Under the pieces are notes generated by a model, which was given only the letters and a program-made list of their open reading frames with translations, searched no databases and was not told the DNA's origin. This document shows, piece by piece, positions 3,404 to 4,771 of a stretch of 25,810 nucleotides of DNA. Every line of letters begins with the position of its first letter. Position 1 is the stretch's first letter. The DNA lies in IMG/VR virus record IMGVR_UViG_2548876964_000006, positions 1 through 25,810 of that record, one strand, 5' to 3'. Both the position numbers and the translations under genes were made by a program. Origin of the DNA: a virus (lineage: Duplodnaviria > Heunggongvirae > Uroviricota > Caudoviricetes).

Positions 3404-4092
3404 CAATTGACTATCAGGTACTGCGTGAGGCGGCAGAAAAGGCAACACCAGACGAATGGGTCGCATTTATTTCGACGGATACTGGTACTTATGCGGTGCA
3501 CACGCCCGGTGATGAACGATGTGAAGACGTTATCAAATGGACAGGCTTTGATGGACAGAAAAATGCAGAGAACAACGCTCGTCATGTTGCCGCGTTCAAC
3601 CCAAAGGTTGCACTGGAGCTGCTTGGTGAAATTAAGTGCTTGGAGGACACAAATATTGATGCCACGTGCCGAATTTCAGAGCTTGAGACTAATCTCGCTG
3701 CGCTGGTGGCAGAGAACGCTGGGCTGAAACACGCAATGGCCGTAACTCTTGAGCATGTGTCGGTCACGGATGCAGGGCAGGCCGGAGTTGCTGCAATGAT
3801 TATCAACGATGCCCTGCACCACAGCGAAACTCCAGCAACCGATGCTTTTCTGGCTGAAGTGAGGACTGAAGCACGCAAGGAAGGCGCTTATTTTGTGGCG
3901 AACAGAATGCTGGCTGCCTGGGAAGCTGGTTTTATTGATGATACTGCGAAGAACGCCGCGGATATTGCCCGGATGATTCTTACCTCTACTGAGTTTATGG
4001 CTAATGCGCCGGAAGGCGATTTTGACCGCTCATTCTCTGATGGCGTTCTCGAAGATATCGCCGCCCAGCTTCGAAAAGGAGGCAACCAGTGA
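3400..4092 (+). CDS. Ead/Ea22-like protein
   Basis: N-terminus TIDYQVLREAAEKATPDEW and a VALELL motif followed by coiled coil are characteristic of the lambdoid Ead/Ea22 family. ATG 3400 overlaps the upstream stop; in-frame ATG 3391 is the alternative. Confidence 0.6.
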   Translation: MTIDYQVLREAAEKATPDEWVAFISTDTGTYAVHTPGDERCEDVIKWTGFDGQKNAENNARHVAAFNPKVALELLGEIKCLEDTNIDATCRISELETNLAALVAENAGLKHAMAVTLEHVSVTDAGQAGVAAMIINDALHHSETPATDAFLAEVRTEARKEGAYFVANRMLAAWEAGFIDDTAKNAADIARMILTSTEFMANAPEGDFDRSFSDGVLEDIAAQLRKGGNQ

Positions 4093-4771
4093 GCGAGATT
4101 AACTATCAGGCACTGCGTGAGGCGGCGCAGAACGCGAAAGATTTAGGTGGGATTAAGAATTACAAGCGAGGCGAGCAAGCTGTTGCCGAATTTGAGTCCC
4201 TGATAACGCCACACATTGTGCTGGCGCTTCTGGATGAACGGGAAAGAAACCAGCAATACATCAAACGCCGCGACCAGGAGAACGAGGAGATGCGCTTACG
4301 GTTGGGAAGCTGCGTGTTGAGCTTGAAGCAGCAGAGAACAACCTTATTGATAGTGAATGCCATGTTGCTGAACTGGAAGAAGCTCTACGCGATAAGCAGG
4401 CGTTACTTGAAGCCTCAGAAAAGCGCAACGCAAAATTACAAAGCGAGAATGCATACATCCGCAACCGGTACAAAGAACTGGACCTATTAATCGGGAAAAA
4501 CATTCTGGTCATGCAGGCTGCCATTATCGAATGGCAGGCAACTGGCGACGCTAAGAGCGGACTAGCATGGATTTATAACACACTGTTTGGCCCTGGCGAA
4601 TTACCGGACGAATCTGAGAAAGATGCTCAGGCCTACTTTAATCGCAAATATGCACCGATTGACGAAAAGCTTATGGCGCTTCACAAGTGGTTTTGGGAAC
4701 AAAGTGAAGCCGAGCGCGCCGCTGGCATTCGCATCAAAGGAGAGGAGCATGGAAATAAAACCAGAAGATGA
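4089..4771 (+). pseudogene. second Ead/Ea22-like gene, disrupted by a frameshift near 4296-4310
   Basis: N-terminal part (INYQALREAAQNA...VLALLDERE) is in frame 0 from GTG 4089. The coiled-coil continuation (KLRVELEAAENNL...) is in the frame of ORF 4511..4771 and has no start codon of its own between 4238 and 4510. Confidence 0.5.

Follow-up and report, generated by a model that had tools for sequence, protein, structure and literature searches.

A single-T deletion in an Ead/Ea22-like gene of a P1/P7-like phage-plasmid from Escherichia coli O111:H8: a very probable recent pseudogene

In the accessory region of a P1/P7-like phage-plasmid from Escherichia coli O111:H8, two Ead/Ea22-like genes lie in tandem, and the second has lost one T at positions 4291-4292 of the window, by which we mean the whole stretch of 25,810 nucleotides analysed here. 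We consider it very probable that this is a recent and real single-nucleotide deletion, private to a small clonal lineage, and that it has made the gene a pseudogene, the loss of function being predicted from related proteins. Translation from the GTG at 4089 would leave the native frame after 67 residues, continue through 66 out-of-frame codons and stop at the TAA at 4488-4490, yielding a product devoid of the entire coiled coil and C-terminal domain. The base may have been lost by replication slippage, and work on lambda Ea22 (PMC10834534) suggests that the resulting allele is null. The feature is already known, as it carries a RefSeq label, and is an ordinary recent pseudogene: PGAP (RefSeq, NZ_CP077546.1) independently describes the equivalent of 4089-4771 as 'ead/Ea22-like family protein, frameshifted'. 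The anomaly, being neither a recoding signal nor a sequencing artefact, matters little in itself. It nevertheless provides a clean clonal marker for a small E. coli O111:H8 lineage that carries this P1-like phage-plasmid, and one data point suggesting that P1-like plasmids can do without the Ea22-like accessory genes they have borrowed from lambdoid exo-xis regions.

Reading frames, lesion site and family membership

The features discussed in the text are the following.

3400 to 4092, plus strand: intact Ead/Ea22-like family member of 230 residues, WP_024222333.1 (PF13935, 87.4 bits)
4089 to 4771, plus strand: the whole Ead/Ea22-like pseudogene, with the same span in the RefSeq/PGAP annotation of NZ_CP077546.1 and a PF13935 match of 75.4 bits for the restored protein
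4089 to 4490, plus strand: frame now translated, 133 residues, of which 1-67 are native Ead/Ea22 and 68-133 out of frame (translation; PF13935 covers residues 2-75 only)
4291 to 4292, plus strand: lesion, one T lost from an ancestral TT in codon 68, ATT for Ile (alignment, base by base against two intact relatives, L012 and L014)
4293 to 4771, plus strand: stranded frame-2 remainder encoding the coiled coil and C-terminal domain, unreachable from the start codon (translation; comparison with 933W L0069)
4511 to 4771, plus strand: 86-residue open reading frame (ORF) that begins at the first in-frame ATG of this remainder and covers the C-terminal domain alone, without a Shine-Dalgarno motif upstream (tcgggaaaaacattctggtcATG)
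4749 to 5105, plus strand: gene for 118 residues that has its Shine-Dalgarno motif and start codon within the 3' end of the Ea22-like gene (23-nt overlap; ORF list, PGAP, Pfam)

Frame 0 is open on the plus strand from the GTG at 4089, which overlaps the TGA of the upstream gene (GTGA), for 133 codons up to the TAA; the open stretch in frame 2 begins at 4238 and ends with the original stop, the TGA at 4769-4771, its first canonical start being the ATG at 4511. Neither open stretch can be extended; they overlap over 4238-4490, and the change from frame 0 to frame 2 fits the deletion of one nucleotide. The stretch 4050-4800 was compared by megablast with complete E. coli genomes, and the window was then aligned with three intact or nearly intact relatives. 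Two records proved 100% identical, namely the O111:H8 plasmids of strains 08-4347 and 08-4455, and several 99% matches had spans one base longer than the query. Within the gene, the alignment with the three relatives contains one indel only, a T missing at 4291/4292 (ATT to AT-), and since this indel is the sole one, the missing base can be assigned to the TT dinucleotide at that place. The window reads GAGGAGA-TGCGCTTACG (also given as GAGGAGA-TGCGCTTACGG, beginning GAGGAGA-TGCGC), and the intact relatives read GAG GAG ATT GCG CTT ACG (GAGGAGATTGCGC, also given as GAGGAGATTGCGCTTACGG).

With the T restored, the gene encodes a 227-residue protein that reads QENEEIALTVGKLRVELEAAE (EEIALTVGKL) across the lesion. 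The preliminary description had taken the two frames to be the halves of one Ead/Ea22-like gene, a reading that now stands far beyond chance, because the restored protein is the same as a catalogued E. coli protein (P0002, for example EED0451851.1) at 227 of 227 residues. Alignment to intact homologues, which had been proposed as a check, likewise gave a gene that runs in a single frame in the relatives and is one T short in the window. The lesion had been placed too far downstream, at 4296-4300 (between TTA and ACG); the alignment moves it about 7 nt farther 5', and a repair at the former position would yield EEMRLTVGKL rather than the true EEIALTVGKL.

The restored protein scores 75.4 bits against Pfam PF13935 (Ead_Ea22; IPR025153) over residues 2-106, well above the gathering score of 27 bits, and the truncated 133-residue product scores 54.7 bits over residues 2-75. 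The NCBIfam scan gave no matches, and a sequence search of the PDB returned spurious low-complexity or coiled-coil matches only, with no Ea22 structure among them. Ea22 proteins are mosaics of a short N-terminal segment, a central coiled coil and a variable C-terminal domain (PMC7093339, PMC10834534). Residues 45-217 of the restored protein are 100% identical to residues 75-254 of 933W L0069, which comprise the coiled coil and C-terminal domain, and this identity, together with the mosaic pattern, suggests the same three-part build for the window's gene. The N-terminal module is common to the window's gene and the 2013C-4081 plasmid, and the 3' tail is shared with p03_3013-2. Ea22 proteins carry a penultimate R/KGE motif at their C-terminus (PMC7093339); the motif is present in the restored protein, where AAGIRIKGE is followed by an extension of eight residues (EHGNKTRR), and three relatives (L002, L015 and L016) terminate exactly at KGE. 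A coiled-coil block of 36 residues (ELEAAE/NNLIDSEC...LLEASE/KRNA; window 4337-4444) is absent from L015, L016 and L017. These are chromosomal and 48-kb-plasmid homologues, and the block corresponds to an in-frame indel of 108 nt between short repeated motifs, which is consistent with recombination within the coiled-coil repeats.

Reality and spread of the deletion

The intact allele occurs in the same setting. The restored 227-residue protein was found letter for letter on 103 public contigs (105 index blocks), on which the gene neighbourhood is as in the window. On P1-like plasmid contigs such as ABNMHI010000022.1 of GCA_032447825.1, the intact allele has the same flanking genes and encodes the same protein as the window does once its T is restored; it carries TT at the equivalent of 4291-4292 and reads through to the TGA at the equivalent of 4769-4771. 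Two carriers of the intact allele are each 99.96% identical to the window, over 9.7 kb for L012 (four changes: the T, two SNPs and a C5/C4 run) and over 4.85 kb for L014 (two changes: the T and one substitution), and a near-identical intact allele thus exists in the same context. This near-identity also indicates that the deletion is very recent and limited to a small clone. As to the remaining differences from L012, position 5382 is A in the window and C in L012, so that the CCGCCC-GAAA-GGGCGG hairpin (5372-5392) just 3' of an ORF for 70 residues (5154-5366) loses its closing pair in the window; position 7069 is G in the window and A in L012; and the C-run at 8997, of four in the window and five in L012, is in the spacer that separates hot (pol III theta) from the humD-like gene.

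The preliminary description had asked whether relatives share the lesion, and they do not. The 71 nt around it matched 1522 complete-genome E. coli records; among the matches listed, two were at 100%, both of them O111:H8 plasmids, and the 28 other records all span 72 nt and therefore carry the extra T. Judged from these comparisons, the deletion is private to the lineage.

Could the missing base be an error of base calling or assembly, the true DNA having ATT and the gene being intact? The window, a draft contig, shows clear artefacts of assembly at its ends, and it differs from L012 elsewhere by a homopolymer, the C5/C4 run at 8997. Against this, an exact look-up of the truncated 133-residue product retrieved five contigs, namely the draft AICG01000095.1 and four Logan assemblies of public runs (SRR21129891 with two similar contigs, and SRR7786821), and the deletion is also present in the two complete O111:H8 plasmids CP077546 and CP077541, which makes at least seven assemblies in all. 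The contig from SRR21129891 and the window disagree at one SNP (position 1965), and the former hence represents different data rather than re-use. The lesion also sits in a TT dinucleotide and not in a long homopolymer. In positions 1-100,000 of CP077546 (101,763 nt in length), the window's gene is the sole CDS flagged 'frameshifted', and this finished assembly is accordingly not full of indel errors. Because the deletion thus recurs, at the level of assemblies, in independent data sets, a base-calling error is very unlikely, and on the assembled sequences the lesion is real. The alternative posed in the preliminary description, a pseudogene or a base-calling error, can be narrowed to its first half, which is borne out by the PGAP call and the intact ancestor allele; the second half falls with the recurrence in at least seven assemblies.

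Another deletion of one nucleotide affects the same gene in pSJ2D-1 (L003, near 3120) and in the plasmids of strains 13081 and CEC12044 (O103:H2). These plasmids are of the same kind and their gene is 99.4% identical to the window's, but the lesion is the loss of a G from GGGG (to GGG) at about codon 49, and PGAP labels the allele 'partial, missing N-terminus'. Either the gene was inactivated independently in these plasmids or the missing G is a sequencing error in the homopolymer. We also note an ASCH-domain gene whose copy in the window (1598-2323) is intact but which is frameshifted in pSJ2D-1, in the plasmids of 13081 and CEC12044 and in that of 2013C-4081.

The window is the draft contig AICG01000095.1 of GCA_000446245.1 and corresponds to part of the 101.8-kb plasmid p08_4347-1, which encodes c1, a cre-like integrase, phd/doc, lpa, pacA/pacB, ref, a darB-like methylase, parA/parB and repA. 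Positions 9000-15000 (humD to pacB), 4.2 kb downstream of the gene, are 98.2% identical to P1 and P7, and from this identity and the gene set the element can be recognised as a P1/P7-like phage-plasmid. The Ea22-like genes belong to an accessory block reminiscent of the exo-xis cassettes of lambdoid phages, with two Ea22-like genes, small ORFs and a DUF551 protein; the location is a phage-plasmid and not the exo-xis early region of a lambdoid phage. A literature search with the strain names 08-4347 and 08-4455 returned unrelated papers only.

The structure of the contig deserves separate mention. The window is not collinear with the finished plasmid: 25-15525 corresponds to plasmid positions 15646-31146 and 15076-25810 to 5138-15872, the two blocks being joined via a repeat of about 450 nt (15076-15525; the 5' part of icd/ant cassettes). 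The ends of the window overlap by 227 nt (25-251 equals 25584-25810), from which it follows that the contig is a cycle of 25,559 bp closed across the repeat, and its first 24 nt are the reverse complement of about 25285-25308. The cyclic contig is most likely an artefact of draft assembly, although it could also be a real circle, excised where the repeats recombined. Three icd-like/antirepressor (KilAC) cassettes are present in NZ_CP077546.1 (5111-6363, 30670-32000 and 79222-81792; one is split into partial genes), of which one copy corresponds to about 15050-16380 of the window, and there are two copies of IS1203; these cassette and IS1203 repeats account for the fragmented draft assembly.

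Recoding, the alternate frame and the fate of the product

The step from frame 0 to frame 2 is one that a -1 shift would make, and the open stretches overlap over 4238-4490, as would suit a gene in which programmed -1 ribosomal frameshifting or transcriptional slippage yields the full-length protein by recoding. This candidate was rejected, and its probability is negligible. The preliminary description had noted that no X_XXY_YYZ heptamer is present and that programmed frameshifting is unlikely, and both statements agree with our results: the overlap contains a single XXXYYYZ string, GGGAAAG at 4240, whose phase is wrong; the only homopolymer of at least five nucleotides is AAAAA at 4496, and no A/T run reaches six. 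The RNA downstream is plain as well, 4285-4380 folding at -20.8 kcal/mol against a mean of -21.8 for shuffled sequences (z = +0.36), so that shuffled sequence is equally structured. The frame change is not conserved among homologues, neither in the set of 1522 matching records nor in the relatives that were translated, eight of eight of which read ENE[ED]IALTVGKL in a single frame; the 103 contigs with the exact ancestor allele, and the other matches listed among the 1522 records, are in frame too.

The out-of-frame tail (4290-4490, frame 0) could be mistaken for an overlapping gene in an alternate frame, since it matches phrog_27631 at 1e-45. Behind the match is ORF-48c of Stx2 converting phage I, which was annotated in an alternate frame within an Ea22 homologue and to which the tail is 98% identical; the record of this phage is over-annotated, with 196 features in 61.8 kb. 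In diverged relatives the frame of the tail is interrupted or absent, which argues for an annotation artefact, and the overlapping gene was rejected on these grounds. As a side observation, phrog_27631 itself looks like a family of spurious ORF calls.

The premature stop removes parts of the protein whose essentiality is taken from lambda Ea22 (PMC10834534). [quoted passage not shown] Since the coiled coil and C-terminal domain are lost and the lambda domain alone is inactive, the product is most likely null, by analogy with a family whose function has been characterised in lambda and Stx phages only, not in P1-like plasmids. In principle, the native N-terminal segment of 67 residues could keep some activity.

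These considerations bear on whether the gene might be a functional truncation or a split gene, its 67 N-terminal residues (with or without the tail) and/or the 86-residue ORF being expressed in a selected role, for example that of modulating the neighbouring Ea22-like protein. The N-terminal fragment keeps 54.7 bits against PF13935, the 86-residue ORF corresponds to the C-terminal domain that in lambda is a stable dimer, and the sister lineage of SJ2D, 13081 and CEC12044 has a deletion of one nucleotide in the same gene. However, independent expression of the ORF at 4511 is unlikely because no Shine-Dalgarno motif precedes it, the lambda domain alone is inactive (PMC10834534), the tail is read from an alternate frame that is not under selection and does not stay open in diverged relatives, the sister lesion lies elsewhere (codon 49 or so), and the restriction of the T deletion to a tiny clone nearly identical to intact carriers points to recent drift and not to selection. 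We regard a selected truncation or split gene as highly unlikely. Just as slim is the chance that the truncated allele is not neutral, either because the N-terminal segment with its 66-residue tail disturbs or modulates the neighbouring protein or the lysis-lysogeny behaviour of the plasmid, or because the gene has been inactivated repeatedly and independently under selection against a harmful Ea22 function. If the T lesion and the G-run lesion of pSJ2D-1 did reflect such selection, Ea22 function would be harmful in a plasmid prophage.

The adjacent gene (3400-4092), which the preliminary description had called an intact paralog, is indeed intact and matches PF13935, but is no close duplicate, its protein being about 25% identical to that of the broken gene over the first 100 residues or so; compensation by so distant a family member cannot be assumed. 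On the 3' side, translation of the broken gene now terminates 259 nt before the gene at 4749, and a mild polar effect on this 118-residue gene may be possible. Its protein matches the TFIIB-type zinc ribbon PF08271 below threshold (21.6 bits, the cut-off being 29) and then continues into a basic tail that is probably helical.

Comparison with Ea22 proteins of lambdoid phages

Among the closest known counterparts of the window's gene are two phage proteins. 933W L0069 (AAD25414.1) is a PF13935-bearing Ea22 homologue of the exo-xis region that has, like the window's gene, a GTG start and the N-terminus MSEINYQALRE; it is probably the 'Ea22 V1' of PMC10834534, by elimination. Its N-terminal module is different and longer, with 30 extra residues, and it ends in IKRGE. 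L0069 is intact and lies between exo and xis of a lambdoid Stx prophage, whereas the window's gene resides on a P1-like plasmid. Lambda Ea22 (P03756), a pro-lysogenic early protein, belongs to the same Ead_Ea22 family via its N-terminal and coiled-coil part. Its C-terminal domain and that of the restored protein are unrelated, but the mosaic organisation of the two genes is alike and both proteins carry R/KGE near the C-terminus, in the restored protein as IRIKGE before the EHGNKTRR extension.
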